Of a DNA stretch of 64,000 bases, positions 2,685 through 32,534 are shown in pieces (the stretch's first letter is position 1; every line of letters starts with the position of its first letter). The position numbers and the translations under genes are program-made. The DNA is taken from contig PAMC01000016.1 in the NCBI GenBank assembly GCA_002710785.1, positions 13,435 through 77,434 of the forward strand. The letters run 5' to 3'. Source of the DNA: a bacterium (GTDB lineage: Bacteria > Patescibacteriota > Minisyncoccia > Phycocordibacterales > UBA918). A model generated the notes under the pieces. The model was not told where the DNA came from and searched no databases. It worked only from the letters and a program-made list of their open reading frames with translations.

Positions 2685-3920
2685 CTACGACAACTGGCGC
2701 CGGCTGCGTCGCTGACGATGAAACGCCACCGCAAAGCGGTGTGCTTCGGCGTTAGCTAGCAGTATTTGATTTTCGTACTGACTGCGCAGCTTAGCACTGG
2801 CTACCACCCGAATAGGTTTGTGTCGTTCGTCCTTGGTTACTGCTACTACCGGTATCACCAAACCGAGCTTCTTAAGCACAAACTCAGCCGCATTTTTTTG
2901 CGCGGCAGCACCGTCAACTACAATAATCTGCGGAAACGGCCACTCTGGGTGGTTAAATCGGCGTTCGAGTACTTCTTTTAGGGCCGCTGTGTCGTTGCTG
3001 CTGCTAAGCGATTCAATTTTAAACTTGCGGTACTCACTCTTTTTTGGCTCTTCCCCTTCTAGTACGGTCATCACACCGACCATATCTTGTCCGCTCAAGT
3101 GCGCCACGTCGTACGCCTCGATGCGCACCGTACGCTCGTCGCGATAGATCTTGCGGTCGTTTTGGATCAGCGCCACGTCCTGGATGTGTTCAAGCGCAAA
3201 GATTTTTTTCTTGATGCGCTCAGCCTCTTCAAACGCTTCAGTTTTGGCAGCAGCCATCATGTCTTTCTTAAGCTCTTTGATAAGCTGCTGTTTTTTACCT
3301 TCAAAAAAGAGCCGGAGGTGGCGGATGGTTTTCTCGTAAGCCACCTTGTCGCCGTGCTCTGGGTAGAGGCCAATTTGGCGATTAAAGTCGATGCGTCCTT
3401 TCACTACCTTACTCCTTTCGCTCCCCAACGGTTTGTCGGTATCGTAGTACTTAAAAAGTCTGCGAACAATTTTTAATGCTTCACGAAACAGTTGCCCACT
3501 TGGAAACGGACCAAAATGATACTTGATTTCGGCTTCGGTAAACCGTTCGGTGAGGTCTTTACCCCGGACCACCAACACCCGTGGCCACTCCTCGTTGGTA
3601 ATAATGAGATGGTTGTAGCTTTTGTCGTCTTTGCTGCGGGTGTTGTAGTGCGGTTTGTGTGTTCGGATGAGGTTGGTCTCCAAGATGAGTGCTTCAAGCG
3701 TGCTGTCGGTTTCTGTTACCTCGACCGTCTTTGCCCGTTCTACCATCTGCTGAATCAATTCTGAGCGTTTGTCGCGAAGGTCATTTGCGAAGTAACTGCG
3801 CACCCGATTGCGTAAGCTGGTAGCTTTACCAATGTAAAGTATCTCTTTTTTGGCACCGAGAAAAAAATACACCCCAGGTGTATCGGGCAATTCTTTCTTC
3901 GCCAAATCTTCTCGCGTCAT
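2685..3920 (-). CDS. uvrC: excinuclease ABC subunit C, short form (GIY-YIG + UVR + RNase-H-like endonuclease domain, no C-terminal HhH2)
   Basis: 411 aa; N-terminal GIY-YIG (GVYFFLGAKKEILYIGKATSLRNRVRSYF); UVR-like helix (KKQQLIKELKKDMMAAAKTEAFEEAERIKKKIFALE); C-terminal UvrC motif IIVVDGAAAQ; protein ends about 200 aa earlier than canonical UvrC. Confidence 0.8.
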   Translation of the reverse strand: MTREDLAKKELPDTPGVYFFLGAKKEILYIGKATSLRNRVRSYFANDLRDKRSELIQQMVERAKTVEVTETDSTLEALILETNLIRTHKPHYNTRSKDDKSYNHLIITNEEWPRVLVVRGKDLTERFTEAEIKYHFGPFPSGQLFREALKIVRRLFKYYDTDKPLGSERSKVVKGRIDFNRQIGLYPEHGDKVAYEKTIRHLRLFFEGKKQQLIKELKKDMMAAAKTEAFEEAERIKKKIFALEHIQDVALIQNDRKIYRDERTVRIEAYDVAHLSGQDMVGVMTVLEGEEPKKSEYRKFKIESLSSSNDTAALKEVLERRFNHPEWPFPQIIVVDGAAAQKNAAEFVLKKLGLVIPVVAVTKDERHKPIRVVASAKLRSQYENQILLANAEAHRFAVAFHRQRRSRRQLS

Positions 3921-7020: not shown

Positions 7021-8313
7021 TCAGGCAGCTGGGTCTAGCACCACTTCGGGCTCTGGGCGCCGTCTCGTATGGTGTAGGTGGTGCCCAATTAAAAGCAACA
7101 CTGCACCGATACAGACGGTAGCCACTGAGGCAAGAAGGTACCAGACCAACATCTCCTGGGCGGGGTCGCTGTCTGGCACGCTGGTTATCTGGGTGTCACC
7201 GCTTGGTGGCGTGCGAACCAGGCGCCCTGCAATCATTTCAAAATCGAGCGGGCCGCTCAAGAGCTCGGGTGACGCTTGTGCGTACAGTTCATACGTGGCT
7301 GACGGAAGCGGTGCATCAAGCGTAAGCGAAAACCACCCATTACGCTGCACCGTAGTGCTCGCGCGCTGTTGATCGCGAAGTAACAAAAGTTCGATCGACT
7401 GCTCTGGGGTAGCAGTACCAAACACTAGCACGTCGCCAGATTCTAGCTGGTGGATAAGACGGATCTCTGGCACCAGCAGGGTTGGCATAGTTGTCGTTGG
7501 TGCACGCAGCACCTCGGGCGTGCTGGTTGCGTTACTAGTACTGGTAGCCCTTGAGCTCGTAGCAGCTTGCTCTAGCTTTAGCGTATTGCGGATTCGAACG
7601 TTTGGTCTGGTTGCCACCACGACCTCTTCTGAAGCACGAGCTGTATAGGCGCTAACGGTATACGAACCGTCGGGTAGCTCTCTTGTGTCAGCAGCAAGTT
7701 GCCACGTTTCTGCGGCCTGCTTCACGGCAGCGCCAAGTACGTAGGTACCTGAGGCATTGGCTGCAGCCAAGATCACCTCTTCTGTGTCTGGGGCGCTCAC
7801 CACAACCGGCACCACACCACTTAGTGGCTCAGGTTGCGTAATGTCAATCGTCGCAGTCGTTCGCGGCAGCGCCTCAATCAGCGTTGCTGTTTGAGGTACT
7901 GCGGCCGGTGCGGCAATTTGGTTGAATAAATTCCAGGAGAGTGCGACCCCAAGCAGCATAATCGCAATCCCGCCCAAACGAGCTACACCAACCGCTAACG
8001 CGTCGGTATTAACCGGTATGCTAGAGGCACCAATGGCAGAGAGGGTAATCGTTCGCCCCAGCAGGCGACCAGGCGCCTTAGGGCTGGTTGGCATAGTGTG
8101 TTGATGGCCGCCATAGCGAGCCTCGCGCACCGACTGTGGCTTAGTGTTTTTTGGGCGCTTTACCACCCGCTTAACCACTCGCTTCACTCTCTTTGTGGCG
8201 ACTTTCTTGGTTGTCTTTTTTGCTACTTTACGGGTACGAGTAGCAGTTTTTTTTGCCGCCTTCTTGACAGCTCTTTTGCTACTACGAACAGTCGTGCGTT
8301 TCTTGACGCTCAT
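7021..8313 (-). CDS. bitopic membrane protein with Lys-rich histone-H1-like N-terminal tail and Ig-like extracytoplasmic repeats
   Basis: 430 aa; residues 1-60 carry AKK/KKV/KRV repeats (about 45 percent K/R); TM segments GGIAIMLLGVALSWNLF and MLVWYLLASVATVCIGAVLLLIG; two beta-rich Thr/Ser-rich repeats between them (GSYTVSAYTARA, ATYELYAQAS). Confidence 0.6.
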   Translation of the reverse strand: MSVKKRTTVRSSKRAVKKAAKKTATRTRKVAKKTTKKVATKRVKRVVKRVVKRPKNTKPQSVREARYGGHQHTMPTSPKAPGRLLGRTITLSAIGASSIPVNTDALAVGVARLGGIAIMLLGVALSWNLFNQIAAPAAVPQTATLIEALPRTTATIDITQPEPLSGVVPVVVSAPDTEEVILAAANASGTYVLGAAVKQAAETWQLAADTRELPDGSYTVSAYTARASEEVVVATRPNVRIRNTLKLEQAATSSRATSTSNATSTPEVLRAPTTTMPTLLVPEIRLIHQLESGDVLVFGTATPEQSIELLLLRDQQRASTTVQRNGWFSLTLDAPLPSATYELYAQASPELLSGPLDFEMIAGRLVRTPPSGDTQITSVPDSDPAQEMLVWYLLASVATVCIGAVLLLIGHHLHHTRRRPEPEVVLDPAA

Positions 8314-8390
8314 ACCTCTAGTATAGCGCTCTGCGACTCGCTGACTCGTCAGTTATCACCTACCTCATAAGACAGAAACCCAAGACCTCA

Positions 8391-8434
8391 CCACCTCTGG
8401 CTTACTATCATATATGATAGTAAGCCAGAGGTGG
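8391..8434. promoter_or_regulatory. perfect 44-bp palindrome (22+22 nt, no spacer): candidate uvrB terminator or operator for the downstream gene
   Basis: ccacctctggcttactatcata|tatgatagtaagccagaggtgg is exactly self-complementary; begins 5 nt after the uvrB stop and ends 78 nt before the next start; U-rich-ish tail (GGGUUUCUGUCUU) on the minus transcript. Confidence 0.5.
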
Positions 8435-8438
8435 CCCA

Positions 8439-10475
8439 CTACGTGGACTTATTGTTCTTGGCGTTTGCCTCTTCGAGGTACTTAATCTCGTCGCGAATAA
8501 TAGCAGCTGTTTCAAAATCCAGAATCGCAACCGCATCTTCCATTTGTCGCCGCTTCTCTTTAAGAACTTTCTTTGGGTTCCGTTTGAAGAGTTCCATGTC
8601 GACCTTAAGTAGTGTGTCGACAGTCTCGTCGTGTTCAGTGCGAAGCTGGTCAGCAATCGACTTAATTTCTTTCTTAATGGTTTGCGGGGTAATACCGTGC
8701 ACCTCGTTATACTTAAGCTGCTTTTCGCGTCGCCGTCGCGTCTCACCGACTGCCGATTGCAGTGAGTCAGTCATCTCATCGGCATAGAGCACAACCCGGC
8801 CATTAACGTTACGTGCGGCGCGGCCAATAGTCTGAATAAGTGCGGTTTCACTACGCAAAAAACCTTCTTTGTCGGCATCTAATATGGCAACCAGCTCTAC
8901 CTCGGGCAGGTCGAGTCCTTCGCGCAGGAGGTTTACACCAACCAAGCAATCAAACTCACCTTTGCGAAAATCAGTCAGAATCTCAATGCGCTCAATGGTG
9001 TCGACGTCGCTGTGAATGTACTTACTCTTGATATTACGCTCATCCAAAAACACAGCCAGGTCCTCAGCCATACGTTTGGTCAGGGTGGTGACGAGAACTC
9101 TTGCGCCGCCCTTGATGGTAGCAACCGCATCATCAATAAAGTCTTTAACTTGACCGGGGTACTCGCCTTTCTCGACCACTGGCCTAAGGACAATCTCGGG
9201 GTCAACAAGGCCGGTCGGGCGAATGATTTGCTCCACGACTGGCGCTCCTTCCTCAGCTTTCGTAAGCTCGTACTTGCCCGGAGTGGCAGTCGTGTAAATA
9301 CGCTGCCCAAGTCGCTCTTCGATTTCGGCAAACTTCAGTGGTCGGTTATCGACTGCGCTCGGCAAACGAAAGCCGTGCTCAACGAGTGTCTCTTTACGTG
9401 AGCGGTCGCCGGCATACATGCCGTTAAGCTGCGGGATGGTGACGTGTGACTCGTCGATAATTGTTAAAAAATCAGCTGAGCCGTCTTCCTTATGTGGGAA
9501 GTACGACAGGAGTGTGTATGGCGCTTCCCCTGGCTTACGGCGGTCGAAGTGGCGCGAGTAGTTTTCGATACCGTTGCAATAGCCCATTTCGCGAATCAGG
9601 GCCATGTCGTGTTGGGTGCGACGCTTAAGACGCTCGGCTTCTAGTATCTTCCCTTCTTTCTTAAACTTCTTTAGTTGCTCTTCGAGCTCTAGCCCAATAT
9701 CCTCGAGCGCCACCTTAATCTCATCTTCGGGCGTTACAAAGTGTTTAGCTGGGAATAAGAAAAAGACCTCCGGTTCGTCAATAATCTGCCTTGAGACAGC
9801 GTCAATTTTGGTAATGCTACCAATGGTGGCTCCAGAGAAGCTAAGACGGTACAGGACCCGTTCGTTGGTGGGCATAATCTCGACGGTATTACCAACCGCC
9901 CGGAAGGTGCCGGGCGTAAGGTCGGCGTTAGTCCGCTCAAAATAGAGGTCAATGAGCGTACGTAGCATATCGGTACGTGTTGTTGTGTAGCCGCGCTCGA
10001 TCTTGAGGTGTTTTTTGAGGTACTGCTCAGGAGAACCTAAGCCGTAAATACACGACACAGAGGCGACAATAATCACGTCCTCCCGGGTTAAGAGCGCTTG
10101 GGTGCTGGCGTGGCGCAAGCGGTCGATCTCTTCGTTAATCTGGGCCTCTTTTTCGATGTAGGTGTCGCTCGTGGGTACGTACGCCTCGGGTTGGTAGTAG
10201 TCGTAGTAGGAGACGAAGTAGTGCACCGCGTTATTGGGAAAAAAGTCACGGTACTCCTGCGCCAGCTGCGCAGCTAGGGTTTTGTTGTGGGCAATCACTA
10301 AGGTTGGCTTTTGCACCGACTTAATAACATTGGCCGCCGTAAAGGTTTTACCACTACCGGTCACACCCAATAAAGTTTGGTGCTGCTCGCCCTTCTCAAG
10401 ACCCTTAAGGAGAGAGGCAATCGCCTCTGGCTGGTCACCGGCTGGAGTTTTGTCTGTACTTAGTTTAAATTTCAC
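8439..10475 (-). CDS. uvrB: excinuclease ABC subunit B
   Basis: Helicase motifs LLGVTGSGKTFT and YFVSYYDYYQPEAYVP; C-terminal UVR helix; start set to GTG giving VKFKLSTDKTPAGDQPEAIASL (canonical UvrB N-terminus); the ORF-track ATG at 10532 adds 19 AT-rich codons. Confidence 0.95.
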   Translation of the reverse strand: MKFKLSTDKTPAGDQPEAIASLLKGLEKGEQHQTLLGVTGSGKTFTAANVIKSVQKPTLVIAHNKTLAAQLAQEYRDFFPNNAVHYFVSYYDYYQPEAYVPTSDTYIEKEAQINEEIDRLRHASTQALLTREDVIIVASVSCIYGLGSPEQYLKKHLKIERGYTTTRTDMLRTLIDLYFERTNADLTPGTFRAVGNTVEIMPTNERVLYRLSFSGATIGSITKIDAVSRQIIDEPEVFFLFPAKHFVTPEDEIKVALEDIGLELEEQLKKFKKEGKILEAERLKRRTQHDMALIREMGYCNGIENYSRHFDRRKPGEAPYTLLSYFPHKEDGSADFLTIIDESHVTIPQLNGMYAGDRSRKETLVEHGFRLPSAVDNRPLKFAEIEERLGQRIYTTATPGKYELTKAEEGAPVVEQIIRPTGLVDPEIVLRPVVEKGEYPGQVKDFIDDAVATIKGGARVLVTTLTKRMAEDLAVFLDERNIKSKYIHSDVDTIERIEILTDFRKGEFDCLVGVNLLREGLDLPEVELVAILDADKEGFLRSETALIQTIGRAARNVNGRVVLYADEMTDSLQSAVGETRRRREKQLKYNEVHGITPQTIKKEIKSIADQLRTEHDETVDTLLKVDMELFKRNPKKVLKEKRRQMEDAVAILDFETAAIIRDEIKYLEEANAKNNKST

Positions 10476-10481
10476 CAGATA

Positions 10482-10487
10482 AATATA
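10482..10487 (-). promoter_or_regulatory. -10-like TATATT hexamer 6 nt upstream of the uvrB GTG start (possible leaderless mRNA)
   Basis: Minus strand reads cgtTATATTtatctgGTGaaattt; no purine-rich SD fits between hexamer and start. Confidence 0.25.
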
Positions 10488-10745
10488 ACGTGATTGATTC
10501 AAATAAAAAAGCAGCAGACCATTACAGCCCACCGCCGAAAATCCACCATCCGTAGGTCGATATCACACATACTGGCAACAATAGAAGTGCGCCGAACAAC
10601 CGCAGGCGCTTTTGATCGCGGCTATCCGGTATGACAGCTCGTTTTGCCAACCACAGGCAGAAGATTCCTGCTGCAGCACACGCTAGTGCAAAGATAATAT
10701 GAATATAAATATGAATACTTGCAGCATTGCCGCATCCTCCAAGAT

Positions 10746-11960
10746 CTAACTGTTTAAGATCAAGTTACGCACTTTTTTCGTATAGTCGACTATCGTCCAA
10801 AGGTTATGCAAGCTAGCCAGGTGGGGGCCGAGCATTTCTTTGGCTTTAAAAAGGTGGGCCAGGTAGGCTTTGGTGTAGGTGTAGCCAATTGGGCTCTCGC
10901 TGTTGTCGAGCGAAGTGAAGTCACGTTGGTACTGGCTGTTGATGAGATTCAGTTTGGTGAACTTTGGTAAACCAAATTCGTCGACTTCTCCAGTGTTGTG
11001 GTAAATCGTACCGGTACGCGCCAAGCGCGTTGGTGCCACACAATCGAAGGTGTCGCAGCCATTAAGTACGCCGTGCAAAATATCTTCGGGTTCGCCGATG
11101 CCGAGTAAGTGGCGGGGTTTATTCTCTGGCAAAATCTCATTCACAACCTTAAGAGACTCGCCTAAGTCCTCCTTACTAAAGCTGCCGCCGATACCAAAAC
11201 CATCGAAGTCCATGGCAGCGAGCGTTTTGGCGCTCTCCTGGCGCAGATCAAGGTGGCGACCACCCTGCACAACACCGTAAATACCTTGCGTCTTAAGCGC
11301 TTCATAGTTTTGCTTATGCGCTAAGATGCTGCGTTTGGCCCAACGGTGGGTGCGGTGCATGGCTTCGATCTGGTACTCCTTCTCGGCGGTGGGGCTGGTA
11401 CATTCATCAAACGCAATAATTATGTCGGCGCCAATGTTATGTTGGATCTCAATTGAGCGCTCAGGAGTAAAGCGGTGCATCGAGCCATCAATGTGTGAGG
11501 TAAACGTTACTCCTTCCTCGTCGATAACACATAGTTTCCCGTGCTGAGTCGCAAGCTCTTTGCTGTAGACGTTGAGGCCAGCGTTTTCGTCTGAGCTCTC
11601 TCCTTTAGCAAACTTAGTAACCCCCTTACCAAAGGCTGCGCCAAGGCTAAAGACCTGAAAGCCGCCGCTATCGGTCATGGTGGGTTTATCCCAACGCATC
11701 ATGTGGTTGAGGCCGCCCATCTCTTTTACGAGCTGATCGCCTGGCTGCAAAAACAGGTGGTACGTGTTGGCGAGCGCCACTTGGTTGCCCACGTAGCGCT
11801 CCATATCCTCAGGCTTAACGCTCTTAACGGTACCTTTCGTACCCACCACCACGAAAGCCGGTGTCTCGATGTTGCCGTGGGGGGTAGAAATAACACCAGC
11901 CCGGCCTAATGTTCCTGATTTATTTTGTTCAACTTTAAAACTTACTGGAGCATTACTCAT
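10746..11960 (-). CDS. tgt: tRNA-guanine transglycosylase (queuine tRNA-ribosyltransferase) lacking the canonical Zn-binding Cys triad
   Basis: TGT core TDSGGFQVFSL (catalytic Asp) and GCDTFDCVAPTRLARTG (DMFDCV-type motif); where bacterial Tgt has C-x-C-x2-C before YSRAYLHHL this protein has SPIGYTYTKAYLAHL; a later His is retained (SLHNL); start set to MSNAPVSFKV at 11960. Confidence 0.9.
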   Translation of the reverse strand: MSNAPVSFKVEQNKSGTLGRAGVISTPHGNIETPAFVVVGTKGTVKSVKPEDMERYVGNQVALANTYHLFLQPGDQLVKEMGGLNHMMRWDKPTMTDSGGFQVFSLGAAFGKGVTKFAKGESSDENAGLNVYSKELATQHGKLCVIDEEGVTFTSHIDGSMHRFTPERSIEIQHNIGADIIIAFDECTSPTAEKEYQIEAMHRTHRWAKRSILAHKQNYEALKTQGIYGVVQGGRHLDLRQESAKTLAAMDFDGFGIGGSFSKEDLGESLKVVNEILPENKPRHLLGIGEPEDILHGVLNGCDTFDCVAPTRLARTGTIYHNTGEVDEFGLPKFTKLNLINSQYQRDFTSLDNSESPIGYTYTKAYLAHLFKAKEMLGPHLASLHNLWTIVDYTKKVRNLILNS

Positions 11961-17560: not shown

Positions 17561-18533
17561 GATCTTCTGCTGGTGATTGCCCCTCGTACACATGCAGCGG
17601 CAAGGCAGCGGCCCCATCTGTATGTGCAATCGGTGACCGCAGCCGACGTGCAAGGTACACATAAAACAATACAGAGAGGATAACGAGCGCCACTACAAAA
17701 GCCAATAGCACCGGCCACGGCAGGTACCAAAATGAATCGCTCATTGAAACAGCTGCCAACTGCTGGTTTTGGTAATCGACGCGCACAGCTGCAGCGTACG
17801 CGCCAAGCCACGGGAGTGCCGGAGTGGCTGTCGCAACACTAAGTACCTCGCCTGGTGCCAATGGTGCGCCGCCAGGGTTGATCGGTACCGCAGCCACTTC
17901 AGCACCTCGTTTGTTAGTGATTATAATCTCTCCTTGTGGCACCACTGTTTTTGTCCCAGGATTACTAATCCGGTAGGCAATCGCAGGCTGTGTATCGGCC
18001 AAGACGAGATTCGTAATATCTAGCGACACCGCACCGTCAGTCTGAATATCTTTCTCCGGAACGGTTAGCCGTAGAACTACTCCGGGCGCCACTCCCCGCT
18101 CAACCGCTTGCTGTGCAGTCGGTCGGTCGATACCTTGCCCGAACCCAAGCAGCGCCCGGTACACACCAGACTCAACATCACGCGGAATCGCCAATCGCAC
18201 TGAAACAATAACCTCCTCCTCAGGTAATAAACGCTGTCCCGCCTGGGTCATGGTGAGCCACTTGGCGACAACTGTCTCGCCCGACGGGAGAATTTGCTCT
18301 TGGGTGCTGGTACCGTCGCGCACTTCGAGTAGGCCATGAACCGACGGGTACACTGTGATTCGGTACGGGTAGGTATTTCTCACTGTTATCTCGGCGCTCA
18401 CAATGTCACCTGGCTGAACGGTTTCCTCGATGGCACGTGGAGAAACGTGGTGAATAGTCTGAGCCGACACAGTGTTACCGCTGGCAAAGACAGCGATTGT
18501 GAGTAACATGATTATTGTCGGTAGGGCGCGCAT
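17538..18533 (-). CDS. DUF916/DUF3324-like cell-surface protein, C-terminal TM anchor
   Basis: Signal peptide; HHVSPRAIEETVQPGDIVSAEITVRNTYPYRITVYPSV; second beta domain AIAYRISNPGTKTVVPQGEIIITNKRG; TM LLAFVVALVILSVLFYVYLARRLRS; paralog of 15917..17560 and 33683..34606. Confidence 0.55.
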   Translation of the reverse strand: MRALPTIIMLLTIAVFASGNTVSAQTIHHVSPRAIEETVQPGDIVSAEITVRNTYPYRITVYPSVHGLLEVRDGTSTQEQILPSGETVVAKWLTMTQAGQRLLPEEEVIVSVRLAIPRDVESGVYRALLGFGQGIDRPTAQQAVERGVAPGVVLRLTVPEKDIQTDGAVSLDITNLVLADTQPAIAYRISNPGTKTVVPQGEIIITNKRGAEVAAVPINPGGAPLAPGEVLSVATATPALPWLGAYAAAVRVDYQNQQLAAVSMSDSFWYLPWPVLLAFVVALVILSVLFYVYLARRLRSPIAHTDGAAALPLHVYEGQSPAEDHDINLKT

Positions 18534-18535
18534 AA

Positions 18536-21500
18536 TTAGAATTCTGGTGTCACCAAGTACACAATATCGCTTGAGTAGTCGCCCGGCGGCTGTGTGCCAG
18601 TAACCACTATTCTGTATATTATATCCTCACTCTCTGTTGCTGGCACGGCACTGTACATGATTTCTTCTGGTGTAGTACTGGCCGCAGCGTAGGTATCGTC
18701 AAGGGCAAAGCGGCTGGTATTGCCTGAAAGTGTATCGTCACCAGCGTGGTACCCGAAACAGCTCGTGAGCCCAGAGCAACCAGCGCTCCATCCGCTTGGT
18801 GCGCTATTGGTGCCGGCAATGTCAGCAATGGTATCAGAATCGCTATTCTGCAGTTGTTGGCGCGTGTAGAGTTGAGTCCGATAGCCGCTGACAGCATTAG
18901 TATCGATTGATAAGCGTTGTCCAGCAATAGCATCACTGTCAGTTACCAGCGAACCGAATGGAATGGTCGTGGCAGTAGTGCTCGCAGTCGTCACCACACC
19001 TTCGGTTGAGGTGCCGGCTGGTAAACCGTTAACCGTAAAAGCGAGACTGCCCGACTCACCTACCAGCGATGGGTAGGTGGCTCCACTATCAAGTGGTACG
19101 ACGTCTCCGTTTGCTACGTCGTACACCCGGAAGTACCACACCTGACCGTAGTACCCAGAAATATTTTGGTACTGAATCGTAAACTCAAATTCAGTGGCGC
19201 TAAGCGCGGTATGCGTGTACCCAGTTAGCGTTAGATCCGATTCGTTGTGAGTACCACAGCCGACGCCCACACCAGCGTTACAGATATCGGTATTTGTTAA
19301 CACCTTTTCATCGATGATCGCATTATCGACGCCGGCGCCATCGTCGTAGCACCAGACATCGCTACCACCACAACTACCACTGTTTACCACATCGTTAACG
19401 GTGGCGAAGCCAGCTGAGTCAGAGTACTGGAGGCGGAACCGGGCGTTGGCTTGTTCGAGATTGTTAAGCTCGTCGACAATAACGCGCAGTTTAACGGTAT
19501 TACCTTTTTGAACTTCGACAGGTGCAACATTCTCAGCTGCTAGGTCGGTGCTCGGTGTGAGAGAGGTTTCATCGTCGTACCAACGCCAATCTGACTGCAC
19601 AGGTGAGTACCCTTCAGTGCGCAGCGAAGGATAGGTGAGGTATTCGGCGAGCTGCGTGCCATCATCTTGTACAACCCGGAAGCAGTAGTCGGAGCGTTGT
19701 GTTGCGCCATTGTGCTGAATCACCCAATCGTACTCAACATCTTCGTCTGCATTTACACTGTACGGGTTGGCAGTTGCTGAGCCACCCTCAACATACCGAC
19801 CAGACCGGTCGGAGACCGCCAAAAGTGTTTGGCCACCGGTTGGCGGGTTGGTACCAATAGCTGCATTGTCTGCAACCGCACCGTTATCAAAACCGCGCCA
19901 GATCGATCCGCTCCCGGGGGCTCCAACATCGTTCCAGCTGCTGATTGCAGAGCAGGTGGTTTCTTGTAGACCGTACTGCAACTTAAGTGACTGGAGCGTT
20001 GCAGGTAGCGTGCCGTTTGTGATGAGAAGTGAGGTGCGTAAGCGAATTACGTCACCGTCACCAACCGGTGTGTCGAGTACCGTGATCGGACTATTTTCAC
20101 CAATGCTGCCGGCGCCAGGGGGCCAGGCGTCGGTGGGGGTAAGGGCGTTTGTGTTGTCGTACCAGCGGTAGTCGTTTTGGCGGATTGAGACGTCTGCGGC
20201 CGGCCACTCCACAACCATGGCACGATACGAAAGGGTGCCTTGCGTGTCTGAACGCCAGATCTCAAAGGTGGTGGAGCTCGTAAGATACAAGCCAGCCATA
20301 ATTTCCGGGAAGTTGTTGGTCGCGCGATCAATAGTCGTGTTACCGAAAATCGCCGCATTATTGATGTCGTTTACACCAACCGCATCAAACGACACTGAAG
20401 TAGTGGCTGGTGCGGTACCCCCGGTAAAGAGTCCGCTCGCTGGAAAAACGGTCATCTCCCCTGCTCCGTTTTGAATATTTTCTATAACCCAGACTACCGC
20501 AGTATGGGTTTGGGCCATATCTGCGCCCGAGTCGAGCGAAAATGAGACCACTCCCATACTCGAGAGCCACGCCTGTACACCGTAGCTCGCCTGTTGTGAG
20601 GTAAACGTGTGCCGTTTTTGTGTCTCCAGAAAAGCTTTGGTGACAGCACTGACCGGCGTGATCGACTCTGTTTCGGTGACGCCGGCGCTTGAGAATTCAT
20701 GTTCCACTCGCTGCACCTTCCAGTTGCCACCTAAAAACTCCACAACAGCGTAGCTAAAGTCCGCACTGGTGTTGGTGGCACTTCTCGTAAGCACTACCTG
20801 ATTGGTGGAGCTCGACCAAGCGGCGGTTGCACGGTTGTTGCTAAAATTACCACGCGAAGCGTTAGTCATACGAGCTCCGGTAATAAACACAGCAATATCG
20901 CCATCGTCGGTAATTGGATTTATGGCTGAGCTTGTGGCGTACGTTTGTCCCGAGCTCATGCTAATAGTTCCTACGTCTCGCACAACCATTTCGTTGTCGG
21001 TACCAGGATCACCAATAAACTCAATGATTTCCCAGGCCACAAACGTGTTATTCACAGAGTCGGTATCACGCGTAATAGTAAAACTAGTTGGTAAGTTACT
21101 GGATGTGATGTACGCGGAAACATCGTCTGGATTTTGGTTACCGGCGCCGGTGTCACGACCAGCACCTGTGTGGTGGAAGTTGGTAATACGAACAAACGCC
21201 ACACTCGTTGAGGCGGGGGCGTCGTAGTCAACGCCGGCCGTAAGTGTAAGACTCGAACCACTGATGACGTTCGTGCCACGCTGCGTCTTGTAGTCACGGT
21301 TAGTTTTGGTGCTAATTTCTGGATACACATCGTACGCCACGAGAGGAGTGCCGTTCTCAACGACCCGGAAACAGAAATCAGTCTCAAATGGCGTATTGGC
21401 GGTAGTTGTGATTGAGAACTCAAAATCAACGTAATTTGTGCTCGAGAGAGTAGTGGTTGGTGTGCTAGCATCAGTTTCGGCTATACCTCCGTTACTGGTT

Positions 21501-24500
21501 AAGAAGTCTGCTTCTTCGTCACTTACACCACCATCAGCCACTGGAATATCAGTTGTATCACTCCCGTCAGTAAGAAACGTGGAGTCGTACATATCCCACG
21601 AGTCATTAGCAAAGGCATCGACGTTGGTCCAGCTGGCAACCACATCACATGTTGTCTCTCTGATGCCGTACTGCAACGTGTACTGGACAGGAACAGAAGA
21701 TGTGCCACCCTCGTTAGAGAGCCCGAGACGCAACCGGTACGGCTCGTTCTTGTCGATGTCGAGCACTGCCGTGTCCTCCGTCCCGCTGGTGGCTGAGCTA
21801 GCGGTTGTTTCAGTGCCGTTATCATTACGCCAGTGGTAATGCACCTGGGTAACAATTGCCCCTGAGACACTGGTGGTGCTCGCAATAGTAACCGCCGTAC
21901 TTGGCGCCACCGATGCGCCGCCCGAGACGGTAATTTGTGTATTCGGGTTAGTAATTTCAAGCTCAATTGTGTCCCCGTTTTGGGCAGTGTTCTCGACGTC
22001 GTACACAACATACACACATAGCGCACTGGTGGTCGAAATACCAACACTGTCAGAAAACGATGCGTTACCGTTGGCGGCGTCAAAGTTGGCGACGGTACTC
22101 CCAAATTGGGACTCTGTACCAGCGTACGATTCGCTGGCGCAGTTGTACGGTGCTGAGGTGTCGCTGTCGTAATACAGCTCAATATTAGCAACATCTGTGT
22201 CGGCATCAATGGTACCCATCTCAGCGATGGTAATGGCCGTGACATTGCGTGCGTCACTAGCCTCGGTGATAACAAACGCGCCACCGCCGTAGATGTCGAC
22301 ATCGCCAATTTCTGCATTCGCCACCTGGTTGCCAACACTGCTCACGTTAACATCAGCGGCAATGGACGCAGTTGGGTATTCAATATACTGACCGAGTACG
22401 GCACCCCCCTCACTAAGCCTAAAGCAGTAGGTGCTTCCCTGTGAAGCTGTGGTCGACGCAACGAGTGAAAACTCGTACTCCACAAATTCAGTACTGGTAA
22501 GCGTAATGCTGTTGGTTTGTGATGTGGTGTCGAGCAAGCCACCGTTTGGCGAGGCAAACGAAGAGTTTGGGTTGCTTACACCCCCACTGCTCGTCGCAAT
22601 GTCGGTGCTGTCGGTGCCGTTGGTGATAAAACTGGAATTGTGCATGTTCCACGCATCGTCTGCGTCGTCGACCCCCGTCCAGGTGCCCACATCTCCACAG
22701 GTCGGGTTAGCTACTCCAAATTCGAGCTCAAAGTTTGTACTTAGCGTTGACGTTGAGCCTTCGTTGGAAAGGGCGATACGCAGACGTCGAGGTTGATTGC
22801 GTGGTAAATCAACCAGGCCGGTATTTTCCACACCAGCGGTAACAGAGGTAGCACCACTCTCGTTACCGTTGTCATTGCGCCAATGGTACCCCGTTTGTTG
22901 AAGATCGGGCCGCACCACGGTGGTGGCACCTGAAAGAGCGATGGCAGTGTTAGGTTTTGGGGTGATGCCGCCGGTTACCGAGACGTCTGTACTCGAATTG
23001 CTAATTTCTACATCAATCGTTTGTCCGTCGTCAGCCGATCCGAGGACGTCAAGCAGTACGTACACACAGAGCGTACTTGAGGTGGCAACCGAAACCGAAT
23101 CCACGAACGTTGCAATACCATTAGCGCCGTTAAAACCGTTGGTGTCAGTCGCGCCGTACTGCAACTCTGAACCGTCATAGCTCTCACTCGAGCAGTCGTA
23201 GGGAGCTGACGTATCTAATTCGTAGAGCAGGCGAATATTGGCAATGTCGTTAGCACCATCAACCGAACCGTCTTCAGTGATCGTAATACCCGTAACCGAG
23301 CGACTGCTGTCGAACTCTGTAAACACGAAGGTGCCGCCGAGGTAGTTGCTCGTAGTGCTTCCTCGCACCTCGGAAATTTGCGAACCAATACTCGACACCG
23401 TCAGTGGTGGCGTCGGGTCGAGCATGGTTTCACCACGAATATCAAGCGGTGTGAGCGCATGCCAGCTCACGTAGAGCCGTTGGTCGGAGCGGTAATTAGT
23501 GTCGACGCCGTAGAAGTCGTCAGTGGCGACATTAAGTGGACCATTGTCGATACTCCAGCTGCCCATGGCACTGGTTGAACTCGCCCAGTACACGTTAGCG
23601 GAGGTGCTGCTGCCAATTGTGCCTCGCGCACCGTACGCAACGTAGACATCATCGGTGTTAGCGTCAACCGCCATGGCCAAATCGGTAATACCTCGACTAT
23701 CGTTGGTGAGGATGTCAGCCGTTTTACTCCAGCTGCCACCACTGTACTTGGCGGTACGAATGTCGTGGTCGGCGGCCGTAAAATTATTGTTGTCTGCAGT
23801 ATACGCCAGGTGAACATCGCCAGTGTCCGGGTCGACCACTGCAGTCATGCCTACTTCGTACGTCGCGCTCTCAACCGCCGACGCATCAATCGCGGTCCAC
23901 GATGCGTCCCAACTCGTGTTGTCCCACACCTTCGAGCGAACATCATTAGCGTTACGGTCGCGGTCAATGACCATGATGTCGCCACCTAACAGTGGCACAA
24001 GAATCTGCATGTCGCCTGTAACTACATCAAGCGGGTTAGTACCAGTTTCTGACCACGATGTCGACAGGTCACAGTTGCTGCTACACTCAACAATAAAACC
24101 ATCCGTGTTATCGGTTAAGCCTGTGTAAATGGTGCCGTCTGTCCCCTTCGTAAGTGCGGGTTTTGCTGCGCCGTGGCTAATAGTTGGTGTCTGGCCAGTG
24201 GTGGCATCGGTACCTGAGAGGCCGACAAGCAAAGTGTCGTTGGTGGTATCGAGGCGGTTGTAGCGGATATCTTCTCGCGCACTGTTTTGGTGCATGGTGA
24301 CAATGTGGATGTAGTCACCAGTGTCCCCCGGCGTCCACTGATCGTACCAGACTGAGATCGAGCCACAGTCGCTAAAGTTATTAAACTGCGTCGCACCGCC
24401 CCAAGTAGCACCGCCATCAGTGGTTTTTGAGTAGTAACAGGTACCGTTGGTGATGGTATAAAACCGGTAGCCAGTTTGATCATCGGTAAAGACAGTAGAA

Positions 24501-24697
24501 AAACCAGATTTTTGGTGCCGAGTCGGTTGGTTATCTGCGTTGTTGGCAATCACAGCTTCGGCAGCAATTATAGGCCGAAAGGAGAAGAAAAGCAGCCCAA
24601 ACAGAAGTACCATCAAGCACGAAAACCAAATCCGTCTCTCAGTCTGAGTCCATATGCAACAAAACTCACGGACGTTGCCGAATATCGTTAAATTCAC
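18536..24697 (-). CDS. giant secreted protein (2053 aa): N-terminal Asp-box (BNR) beta-propeller, four copies of an uncharacterised about 200-aa module, conserved C-terminal domain
   Basis: Signal anchor; Asp-box SKTTDGGATWGG and S-x-SWS repeats; modules starting YHWRNDNG (x2), YRWYDN, DWRWYDDE, each with R-L-R, L-Q-Y-G/S, C-F-R and Y-P motifs; C-terminus ...YSSDIVYLVTPEF. Confidence 0.8.
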   Translation of the reverse strand: MNLTIFGNVREFCCIWTQTERRIWFSCLMVLLFGLLFFSFRPIIAAEAVIANNADNQPTRHQKSGFSTVFTDDQTGYRFYTITNGTCYYSKTTDGGATWGGATQFNNFSDCGSISVWYDQWTPGDTGDYIHIVTMHQNSAREDIRYNRLDTTNDTLLVGLSGTDATTGQTPTISHGAAKPALTKGTDGTIYTGLTDNTDGFIVECSSNCDLSTSWSETGTNPLDVVTGDMQILVPLLGGDIMVIDRDRNANDVRSKVWDNTSWDASWTAIDASAVESATYEVGMTAVVDPDTGDVHLAYTADNNNFTAADHDIRTAKYSGGSWSKTADILTNDSRGITDLAMAVDANTDDVYVAYGARGTIGSSTSANVYWASSTSAMGSWSIDNGPLNVATDDFYGVDTNYRSDQRLYVSWHALTPLDIRGETMLDPTPPLTVSSIGSQISEVRGSTTSNYLGGTFVFTEFDSSRSVTGITITEDGSVDGANDIANIRLLYELDTSAPYDCSSESYDGSELQYGATDTNGFNGANGIATFVDSVSVATSSTLCVYVLLDVLGSADDGQTIDVEISNSSTDVSVTGGITPKPNTAIALSGATTVVRPDLQQTGYHWRNDNGNESGATSVTAGVENTGLVDLPRNQPRRLRIALSNEGSTSTLSTNFELEFGVANPTCGDVGTWTGVDDADDAWNMHNSSFITNGTDSTDIATSSGGVSNPNSSFASPNGGLLDTTSQTNSITLTSTEFVEYEFSLVASTTASQGSTYCFRLSEGGAVLGQYIEYPTASIAADVNVSSVGNQVANAEIGDVDIYGGGAFVITEASDARNVTAITIAEMGTIDADTDVANIELYYDSDTSAPYNCASESYAGTESQFGSTVANFDAANGNASFSDSVGISTTSALCVYVVYDVENTAQNGDTIELEITNPNTQITVSGGASVAPSTAVTIASTTSVSGAIVTQVHYHWRNDNGTETTASSATSGTEDTAVLDIDKNEPYRLRLGLSNEGGTSSVPVQYTLQYGIRETTCDVVASWTNVDAFANDSWDMYDSTFLTDGSDTTDIPVADGGVSDEEADFLTSNGGIAETDASTPTTTLSSTNYVDFEFSITTTANTPFETDFCFRVVENGTPLVAYDVYPEISTKTNRDYKTQRGTNVISGSSLTLTAGVDYDAPASTSVAFVRITNFHHTGAGRDTGAGNQNPDDVSAYITSSNLPTSFTITRDTDSVNNTFVAWEIIEFIGDPGTDNEMVVRDVGTISMSSGQTYATSSAINPITDDGDIAVFITGARMTNASRGNFSNNRATAAWSSSTNQVVLTRSATNTSADFSYAVVEFLGGNWKVQRVEHEFSSAGVTETESITPVSAVTKAFLETQKRHTFTSQQASYGVQAWLSSMGVVSFSLDSGADMAQTHTAVVWVIENIQNGAGEMTVFPASGLFTGGTAPATTSVSFDAVGVNDINNAAIFGNTTIDRATNNFPEIMAGLYLTSSTTFEIWRSDTQGTLSYRAMVVEWPAADVSIRQNDYRWYDNTNALTPTDAWPPGAGSIGENSPITVLDTPVGDGDVIRLRTSLLITNGTLPATLQSLKLQYGLQETTCSAISSWNDVGAPGSGSIWRGFDNGAVADNAAIGTNPPTGGQTLLAVSDRSGRYVEGGSATANPYSVNADEDVEYDWVIQHNGATQRSDYCFRVVQDDGTQLAEYLTYPSLRTEGYSPVQSDWRWYDDETSLTPSTDLAAENVAPVEVQKGNTVKLRVIVDELNNLEQANARFRLQYSDSAGFATVNDVVNSGSCGGSDVWCYDDGAGVDNAIIDEKVLTNTDICNAGVGVGCGTHNESDLTLTGYTHTALSATEFEFTIQYQNISGYYGQVWYFRVYDVANGDVVPLDSGATYPSLVGESGSLAFTVNGLPAGTSTEGVVTTASTTATTIPFGSLVTDSDAIAGQRLSIDTNAVSGYRTQLYTRQQLQNSDSDTIADIAGTNSAPSGWSAGCSGLTSCFGYHAGDDTLSGNTSRFALDDTYAAASTTPEEIMYSAVPATESEDIIYRIVVTGTQPPGDYSSDIVYLVTPEF

Positions 24698-32042: not shown

Positions 32043-32174
32043 ACTCTACGTTGTTAAGCTGCAGCACCCATCACGAGGATAGCTGAGTCGACTCCAGACT
32101 CCACACCGAAGTCGCACTCACGATGCTGTAGCGTACAAATCGTCTCACCGGGCTGTACGGTGATTGGGCAAGCC

Positions 32175-32196
32175 CAAAAGACGAGCCGTGCTCGTC
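32175..32196 (-). terminator. intrinsic-terminator-like hairpin (8-bp stem AGACGAGC/GCTCGTCT, 3-nt loop) followed by UUUU on the minus transcript
   Basis: Read directly: plus strand aaaAGACGAGCcgtGCTCGTCT; on the minus strand the stem is followed by TTTTGGGC; sits 340 nt after the 32535 gene stop inside a 490-nt non-coding gap. Confidence 0.45.
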
Positions 32197-32534
32197 TCTA
32201 CGTTTTGTACTCTTAAAGTATACTCCGCGCCAACGGACACTTGTTCGCGGCTATACACATATAGCTGCACAGTTTACCTATCCTACTCAGTCCAGTGGAA
32301 AATAAATGAGTAAATGAACGAAGCGATTATTACGAATTTACTTCCGAAGTTTGTCTTAGTCTAGACAAAAATCCTGGAAGGCCAGTATCGATACTCGCAG
32401 TCTGTGAGTAAAACGGGTGATCAGCAATCTACTGCGCTGAATAGCTTAGCAACAACGCAGTAGAATCGCCCTAGATCAGGAGCGATTCACTCGCGAAAAT
32501 TCGCAACAGTCGGCTTCGCCTTGTTTGCTCATTT

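Follow-up and report, generated by a model that had tools for sequence, protein, structure and literature searches.

We describe here a perfect 44-bp palindrome, CCACCTCTGGCTTACTATCATATATGATAGTAAGCCAGAGGTGG, that lies at 8391-8434 between uvrB and a gene that we call X in a 64,000-nucleotide stretch of contig PAMC01000016.1 (assembly GCA_002710785.1); this whole stretch is referred to as the window. The source genome is that of a marine member of the Patescibacteria (candidate phyla radiation, CPR), and the closest uvrB genes, with 77-64% identity, come from metagenome-assembled genomes (MAGs) labelled Saccharibacteria, Parcubacteria or Patescibacteria. All genes near the palindrome are on the minus strand. 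The uvrB gene, which encodes the Pfam UvrB domains, occupies 8439-10532; its longest open reading frame (ORF) runs from 10532, the true start is likely to be near 10472, and the stop codon is at 8439-8441. Four nucleotides separate this stop from the palindrome, and another 77 nt separate the palindrome from the ATG of X (8313). The product of gene X (7021-8313), 430 aa long, is rich in Lys at its N-terminus, contains a membrane segment and gives weak Ig-like matches; X is the first gene of the series X-uvrA-(95-aa ORF)-uvrC.

The two arms of the palindrome (8391-8412 and 8413-8434) have 22 nt each, are 100% complementary and are separated by a spacer of 0 nt, exactly as the original prediction had described from the letters of this stretch. 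No other perfect inverted repeat of at least 14 nt occurs in the window. Zero-loop palindromes with arms of at least 7 nt number 5 against ~3.9 expected by chance, only this one being long, and the chance expectation for 22-nt zero-loop arms in the window is ~4e-9, which agrees with the earlier statement that chance was a very unlikely origin. Neither the half-site nor the central 24-mer has a second copy at up to 3 mismatches within the 64 kb, and no shuffle reached the observed count. The palindrome is real DNA, because six or more independent marine assemblies derived from different samples (ENA, JGI and Logan) contain the identical sequence. An assembly or chimera artefact was ruled out on the same ground and by the fact that complementarity ends after 22 nt. 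One strain (L002) carries a single-base change, GGAGG for GGTGG, in the arm facing the next gene, and three contigs (L003, L006, and L008) end within the palindrome. The predicted fold, as RNA or as single-stranded DNA, is a stem of 20-21 bp with a 4-nt loop, so the RNA hairpin foreseen immediately after the uvrB stop was also recovered; compared with shuffles, the 56-nt hairpin segment has a z of -10.4 as RNA and -10.1 as DNA. No known RNA family matched at its gathering score, and there were only sub-threshold matches to generic microRNA hairpins.

The palindrome family and its conserved core

An exact scan for the central 20-mer of the palindrome, TACTATCATATATGATAGTA (8403-8422), found matches in 117 stretches of the metagenome collection and in one viral contig, against a chance expectation of the order of one, which is a rough estimate only, the size of the collection not being given. 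The flanks of these matches are unlike those of the window and unlike one another. Extra copies with 1-3 mismatches on the same contigs reduced the invariant part to the 16-mer CTATCATATATGATAG (8405-8420 in the window), a putative TrpR-family operator, which is unchanged in 116 distinct sites and is extended mostly by TA/TA, as in the window, or by CA/TG. We refer to these CTATCATATATGATAG-core palindromes, with the 16-bp core exact or nearly so, as the family. The window copy is a member of it: it matches the 20-mer at 20 of 20 positions, its zero-loop dyad, with the AT-rich centre TCATATATGA, continues into complementary arms, and it is intergenic at a gene end in a patescibacterial genome. 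Its left arm, CCACCTCTGGCTTA (8391-8404, plus-strand coordinates), on the side of the next gene, and its right arm, TAAGCCAGAGGTGG (8421-8434), on the side of uvrB, are both specific to this locus.

The arms of the family covary. Flanking sequence extended the pairing of the 20-mer by at least 4 bp in 53% of 100 unique sites, versus 2.4% when each left flank was combined with the right flank of another site. The covariation score of the arms over the 116 aligned distinct sites was 0.341, versus 0.138 ± 0.008 for shuffles (0 of 500 as high) and 0.12-0.15 for slid registers. The first position outside the 20-mer was paired in 100 of the 116 sites (AU 41, UA 31, CG 15, GC 13, and no G:U), and Watson-Crick pairs of four types were found at the 3rd to 6th positions outside the core in 86, 72, 68, and 69% of sites, respectively. 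Pairing decreased to background ~10-11 bp outside the core, and G:T was not enriched among the non-pairs. With 14 extra pairs per arm, the window copy shows the typical architecture and ranks among the longest 4-7% of members; other perfect palindromes of 44-50 bp exist within the family. Symmetry through a loop-less centre, together with strict Watson-Crick arms lacking a G:T excess, is more in keeping with DNA that is recognised or copied as such than with selection on an RNA hairpin. The arms may arise by templated strand switching or arm-to-arm correction, or else hairpin or cruciform formation itself may matter. Comparison between strains gave no compensatory double arm change, with only 10 informative pairs, all of them single changes outside the arms.

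No further family copy, degenerate ones and any ATATAT-centred palindrome included, was found in the 64-kb window, and no further family copy occurs in the 10 kb beyond it, so that a total of 74 kb of this genome contains one copy. Gene context was assigned with crude ORF calls; on this basis, 23 sites are located between convergent genes versus 8 between divergent genes, approximately a threefold difference, and many sites abut stop codons.

Several loci showed arrangements of their own. At L215, a second, unrelated core, CCTTTCATTCGAATGAAAGG, is present with differing complementary arms in two perfect palindromes of 32 and 44 bp (17841-17872 and 18665-18708), and a 42-bp perfect palindrome at 17755-17796 has yet another centre; the combination of a conserved centre with variable perfect arms may therefore be a general habit of these genomes. 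At L111 (880-1330), four palindromes spaced 136-147 bp apart belong to tandemly repeated units that lie downstream of a TrpR-family gene; three of them have the one-mismatch core CTATCGTATATGATAG and the fourth has the standard core, an array-like arrangement seen nowhere else. Two family palindromes, ~95-225 bp apart, precede the gene of a conserved 295-aa protein without Pfam match at L106, L165, L169, and L190, two of which are from Tara Oceans. On the predicted viral contig from IMG/VR (L125/L206, ~3320-3372), the 20-mer occupies the spacer and -10 element of a promoter close to consensus (TTGACA, 17 nt, TAGTAT), so that the host TrpR-family protein may control a phage promoter.

The linked TrpR-family protein and the uvrB-X gap

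In 29 of the ~118 loci, which had been chosen by the DNA motif alone, a protein of ~140 aa is encoded beside the site. It scores 49 bits against Pfam Trp_repressor (cut-off 27), and it falls below the NCBIfam cut-offs for TrpR and for YerC/YecD. The best 42 PDB fold matches of its AlphaFold model (pLDDT 85) were all TrpR or TrpR-like chains, and it has an extra C-terminal helical region with the conserved end NPFG..LK.KYPLHFLLFPWP. Public records from Paceibacteria, Parcubacteria and Kaiserbacteria label it as Trp repressor or YerC. Trp_repressor, with 13 members, was much more frequent than any other family among the 110 distinct proteins flanking the sites. Every motif-selected locus with a TrpR-family gene has family palindromes on both sides of that gene, and the reciprocal test gave the same picture: all six homologous genes picked by protein search alone (L212-L216 and L220) are bracketed by family palindromes.

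The copies take regular positions around these genes. The proximal copy is found 3-10 nt before the ATG, where it overlaps a TAGTAT-like -10 box, and the mRNA of the TrpR-family gene would therefore be leaderless; a distal copy is often present 50-135 nt further upstream, and one or two copies follow 4-15 nt past the stop. Each 10-20-kb locus around a TrpR-family gene contains only 2-4 such gene-flanking copies. Because the gene occupies the same rpoB-rpoC/dnaG-rpoD place in at least five genomes (L107 included), it has the look of a resident regulator and not of mobile cargo. In two variant proteins, probably of one lineage, the recognition helix reads G(A/H)GTIAGV in place of GPNTIxKV, and the core has changed to TACT(A/T)CTATATATAG(T/A)AGTA; GPNTIxKV is thus paired with ..TATCATATATGATA.. 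and G(A/H)GTIAGV with ..TACTATATATAGTA.., whereas more distant homologues are accompanied by other symmetric core variants. L214 departs from the rpoC-dnaG location of the five other genomes: at 8207-11387, its TrpR-family gene lies together with three unknown ORFs on the opposite strand between rpsJ (S10) and rplC (L3), splitting a ribosomal protein operon that is otherwise contiguous. Many contigs with the gene are just ~1-1.6 kb long, which is close to the length of the gene with a palindrome on either side.

Those TrpR and HisR proteins that have been characterised recognise palindromic sites of 20 bp, and autoregulation is common among them (PMC9413887). Gene bracketing, the reciprocal test, the helix-core variants and this precedent, taken together, make direct recognition of the core by the TrpR-family protein the best-supported candidate reading of the family.

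The uvrB-X gap itself was compared among relatives. X homologues are detectable in only nine cases, with 42-52% identity, and the order TGT-uvrB-X-uvrA-small ORF-uvrC is kept on four contigs of X homologues; the X protein is fast-evolving, of surface type, and positionally conserved between uvrB and uvrA in this lineage (window and L207-L211). Five orthologous intergenic regions delimit a block predicted to be the promoter of the X operon, GTGATAACT ... GCGCTATACT, at 8320-8359 on the minus strand, in which the window and its four distinct orthologous counterparts (L207/L208, L209, L210, and L211) have GTGATAAC..GCGCTATACT-N6-ATG in common. Its -10 box, TATACT, is at 8320-8325, and since only 6 nt separate it from the ATG of X, the X mRNA is probably leaderless. 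The palindrome is situated 31 nt upstream of this block. A family palindrome with a symmetric core variant and other arms, CGTCATA-CTATCATGCATGATAG-TATGACG, is also present in the uvrB-X gap of L209, whose X protein is 44% identical, at 14 nt upstream of the shared block. A family member with differing arms in the same gap of two distant lineages suggests that its role is tied to this locus, or that the position is at least a preferred one. The gap of L211 contains a 5-bp hairpin (CCTGG-AGAG-CCAGG), and L009 has an 11-bp GC hairpin at the same place.

Other features of the window were recorded as well. The motif GCG(C)nTATACT recurs 6-7 nt before start codons on the minus strand at 8320-8329, ~30790, ~32100-32200, and ~690-710 (gagcgCTATACTagaggtATG, gcgcgGTATACTttaacc, and gagcgATATACTatagATG), which suggests a leaderless promoter type used genome-wide. 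Two giant minus-strand ORFs of 7718 aa (40800-63956) and 2053 aa (18536-24697) were found, the 2053-aa protein having no Pfam match; proteins neighbouring them carry cohesin, dockerin, Ig-like and fn3 domains, and cell-surface proteins thus seem to be encoded in this region. An 18-bp perfect palindrome, CCTGGCATCGATGCCAGG, at 2044-2061 within the D-Ala-D-Ala ligase gene is kept in all strains, with ~0.24 expected by chance per 64 kb.

Weighing the operator reading

With moderate confidence, we propose that the core is a TrpR-family operator and that the window copy is a functional, or recently functional, member of the family. The central 16-20 bp, (TA)CTATCATATATGATAG(TA), would be read by a dimeric, Patescibacteria-specific TrpR-family protein that would also use this site to repress the leaderless promoter of its own gene, and the outer 14 bp of each arm would be locus-specific sequence turned self-complementary, as in most members. 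At TrpR-family genes the site covers the -10 box; the window copy spans approximately -60 to -104 relative to the X start codon, where it cannot occlude the X promoter, and classical operator action over that promoter would not be expected. The window site would instead mark the transition from uvrB to the X-uvrA-uvrC operon, which has its own predicted promoter. Bound protein acting as a roadblock, together with the transcribed 20-bp hairpin, could limit or modulate read-through from uvrB into the X operon, hairpin or protein might protect the uvrB 3' end, and the downstream promoter would possibly be modulated. We infer that a regulator of this type may be encoded in this genome, that it would bind the window copy, and that it would affect the expression of uvrB, X, uvrA or uvrC. 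The original prediction had seen in the palindrome an ideal site for a dimeric regulator of the downstream gene. For the central 16-20 bp, which match the sites bracketing TrpR-family genes, the idea of a dimeric regulator holds. A gene-specific operator is not upheld, because dispersed copies had been named in advance as evidence against it, and the core is in fact dispersed over more than 100 unrelated loci, several per contig, in addition to lying 31 nt upstream of the X promoter.

Several observations weigh against the proposed operator. The uvrB-X gaps of two close relatives, L207 and L210, are only 43 nt long and contain no element at all, and the palindrome is therefore dispensable there. 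The window copy has no overlap with the X promoter, and hmmsearch with E up to 10 found no TrpR-family gene in the window or the 10 kb beyond it (74 kb). The 110 distinct flanking proteins form no coherent regulon; a regulon of aminoacyl-tRNA synthetase and Gat genes (~12 of the 110, binomial p ~1e-4 against an assumed background of 3%) was considered and set aside, most of the sites concerned being at gene 3' ends. Placement between convergent genes and next to stop codons is unusual for a pure operator, and protein recognition offers no explanation for the self-complementary arms. Among the scanned window proteins, that is, all larger ORFs except the 7718-aa ORF, none has a DNA-binding Pfam domain.

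Position and fold suggest another explanation, a pure RNA element serving as a protein-independent terminator or as a stabiliser of the uvrB 3' end through its 20-bp hairpin, which we consider rather unlikely. The palindrome starts 4 nt past the uvrB stop and folds very stably, ordinary hairpins occur at the same place in relatives (L009, L012, L018, L019, L039, and L211), and the family as a whole is enriched at gene ends and between convergent genes, where it sometimes occupies the whole gap; some members even have A-tract/T-tract arms resembling bidirectional terminators. However, of the marks of an intrinsic terminator the window copy has the stable hairpin past the stop and lacks the U-rich tract after the stem. 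The stem is followed by UGAGGUCUUGGG, without a T-tract, and a terminator scan made no call; the sequence after the 44-bp palindrome, TGAGGTCTTGGG, differs from the T-tract terminators of the same genome (AAAAACACCCTCCAGGGTGTTTTT, and a similar one at ~30.8 kb). Across the family, tandem-gene contexts showed no directional T enrichment, and at L212, L213, L215, and L220 a separate canonical GC-rich T-tract terminator lies beyond the palindrome 3' of the TrpR-family gene. The strong terminator suggested in the original prediction is thereby weakened. Furthermore, nothing in an RNA hairpin calls for a palindromic loop or for the same 16-nt apex in lineages far apart, and G:U pairs are not favoured in the arms. 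Bidirectional intrinsic terminators of Patescibacteria do resemble the family in having long perfect hairpins right after stops or between convergent genes, with frequent A- and T-tract arms, whereas the stems of canonical terminators are GC-rich, their loops are odd (3 nt) and non-palindromic, and no sequence is common to them; in the window palindrome, by contrast, the centre is AT-rich, conserved in sequence and fully symmetric, and a T-tract is missing. The wide dispersal of the copies could also be that of a selfish mini-palindrome akin to repetitive extragenic palindromic (REP) elements, invading intergenic "safe" sites such as terminator loops, with the TrpR-family gene in a role like that of the REP-associated tyrosine transposase (RAYT). 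The copies are indeed intergenic, enriched at 3' ends and several per contig, one gene type is bracketed by them as RAYT genes are by REPs, and presence or absence among orthologous uvrB-X gaps is compatible with gain or loss; the lower stem of the window copy also looks like the short uvrB-distal hairpins of L211 and L009, which makes insertion into a pre-existing loop conceivable. We nevertheless judge this origin improbable: the bracketed 140-aa protein is a helix-turn-helix protein of TrpR fold with no nuclease or transposase domain, its synteny at rpoB-rpoC/dnaG-rpoD is conserved in at least five genomes, and copies are few, with 2-4 flanking the gene per 10-20-kb TrpR-family locus and 1 in 74 kb here. 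No target-site duplications were seen, no empty orthologous site, which would be proof that the core had been inserted, turned up in a search for such sites, and the lower stems are unlike typical GC-rich terminator stems. A classical REP was rejected outright, only the centre being conserved here, the arms being locus-specific, and the bracketed gene not being a Y1/HUH (RAYT) transposase.

Two further explanations were weighed, both far less probable. A perfect palindrome with so AT-rich a centre is ideal for cruciform extrusion, and the strict Watson-Crick arms suggest that pairing at the DNA level matters or arises mechanically; a DNA-structure site, either for recombination or resolution at a cruciform (dif/Xer or protelomerase) or for a replication hairpin, could accommodate both facts. 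We hold it to be very improbable, as the GC skew is flat without any switch, nearly all window genes are on one strand with no orientation change nearby, other organisms have many copies per genome, which is unexpected for dif or telomere resolution, and no recombinase was associated with the sites among the flanking proteins. Still harder to credit is a LexA-type SOS box controlling the uvr genes. The palindrome lies within the uvrB-X-uvrA-uvrC cluster, a variant palindrome is located upstream of a UvrD-like helicase gene at L213, and the 20-mer resembles the E. coli SOS consensus TACTGTATATATATACAGTA, with CTAT-N8-ATAG for CTGT-N8-ACAG. It is, however, the defining CTGT/ACAG bases that are absent, in a comparison made with a gamma-proteobacterial consensus. 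The sites bracket TrpR-family genes and not lexA, the flanking genes are not repair-themed (1 recA, 2 ogt, and 1 dnaE among 110), and no LexA-like protein was seen among the scanned window proteins.

Relation to known systems and significance

The operators of TrpR and HisR (YerC) provide the closest parallel to the proposed operator. They share with the patescibacterial sites a palindrome of ~20 bp, a small dimeric TrpR-fold repressor (its binding being predicted here), a site ahead of the regulator's own gene, and a lineage-specific consensus that changes with the protein (PMC9413887). The site sequence differs, TACTATCATATATGATAGTA here versus TGTACTnGTnnACnAGTACA for TrpR and cacTTTAnnnnnnTAAAgtg for HisR, and the patescibacterial protein is ~40 residues longer, with its conserved tail. 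Unlike TrpR and HisR sites, moreover, the patescibacterial sites also lie downstream of the regulator gene and at many gene ends, within longer locus-specific perfect palindromes.

Other systems resemble the family in part. The controlling inverted repeat of chaperone expression (CIRCE), which is reported to work as an operator in DNA and also as a stem-loop in mRNA, is likewise kept nearly unchanged across very distant bacteria through a conserved repressor, HrcA; it differs in its 9-nt non-palindromic spacer, in its location at heat-shock promoters and 5' leaders, and in having no variable complementary extensions. The DNA uptake sequences (DUS) of Neisseria and uptake signal sequences (USS) of Haemophilus, when paired in terminators, also place a short conserved word as an inverted pair at gene ends, but in those cases it is the stem that the conserved word makes up, with any sequence in the loop, and the word is limited to one group of species, whereas the patescibacterial family conserves the centre, extends over distant lineages and is tied to the gene of a DNA-binding regulator. 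REP and REPIN elements with their RAYT genes are similar as dispersed extragenic palindromes with 3'-end enrichment, one dedicated gene flanked on both sides, and breaks in short-read assemblies. In those systems, in contrast, the whole imperfect stem is conserved, copies number tens to hundreds, and the gene codes for a Y1/HUH transposase, while in the patescibacterial family conservation is confined to the apex, each locus has a perfect stem of its own, and the gene product is of TrpR fold.

Small repressors that act on palindromic operators are familiar; a conserved apex between perfect arms that differ from locus to locus is not known from such systems, nor is a location at gene boundaries. 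Full-text searches, of incomplete coverage, for literature on the core sequence and on TrpR-type regulators or palindromes of Patescibacteria/CPR returned nothing relevant, and because of that coverage the description of the family as previously undescribed is provisional. More tentatively, the observations may belong to an undescribed patescibacterial DNA-protein system, in which a TrpR-fold protein with a unique C-terminal tail goes together with a 16-20-bp core at the apex of locus-specific palindromes at gene boundaries. In one version of this possibility, the protein may recognise extruded hairpin or cruciform DNA and serve as a boundary, insulator or roadblock factor and not as a classical repressor. 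In another, these genomes may have some general process, for instance template switching at hairpins, by which any strong palindrome grows outward, as the second core at L215 hints.

Patescibacteria/CPR make up a large share of bacterial diversity, are mostly uncultured, and their transcriptional control is barely known. A site conserved at the level of single bases in distant lineages, together with one small regulator gene, provides a testable protein-DNA pair consisting of a 140-aa protein and a 20-mer. Since perfect palindromes break short-read assemblies, the family also implies a systematic fragmentation of patescibacterial MAGs and bears on MAG quality. The locus-specific perfect arms are an unusual evolutionary signature, which may report hairpin or cruciform biology or template-switch mutagenesis, and the family as a whole offers a handle on how gene boundaries are marked in these tiny genomes.

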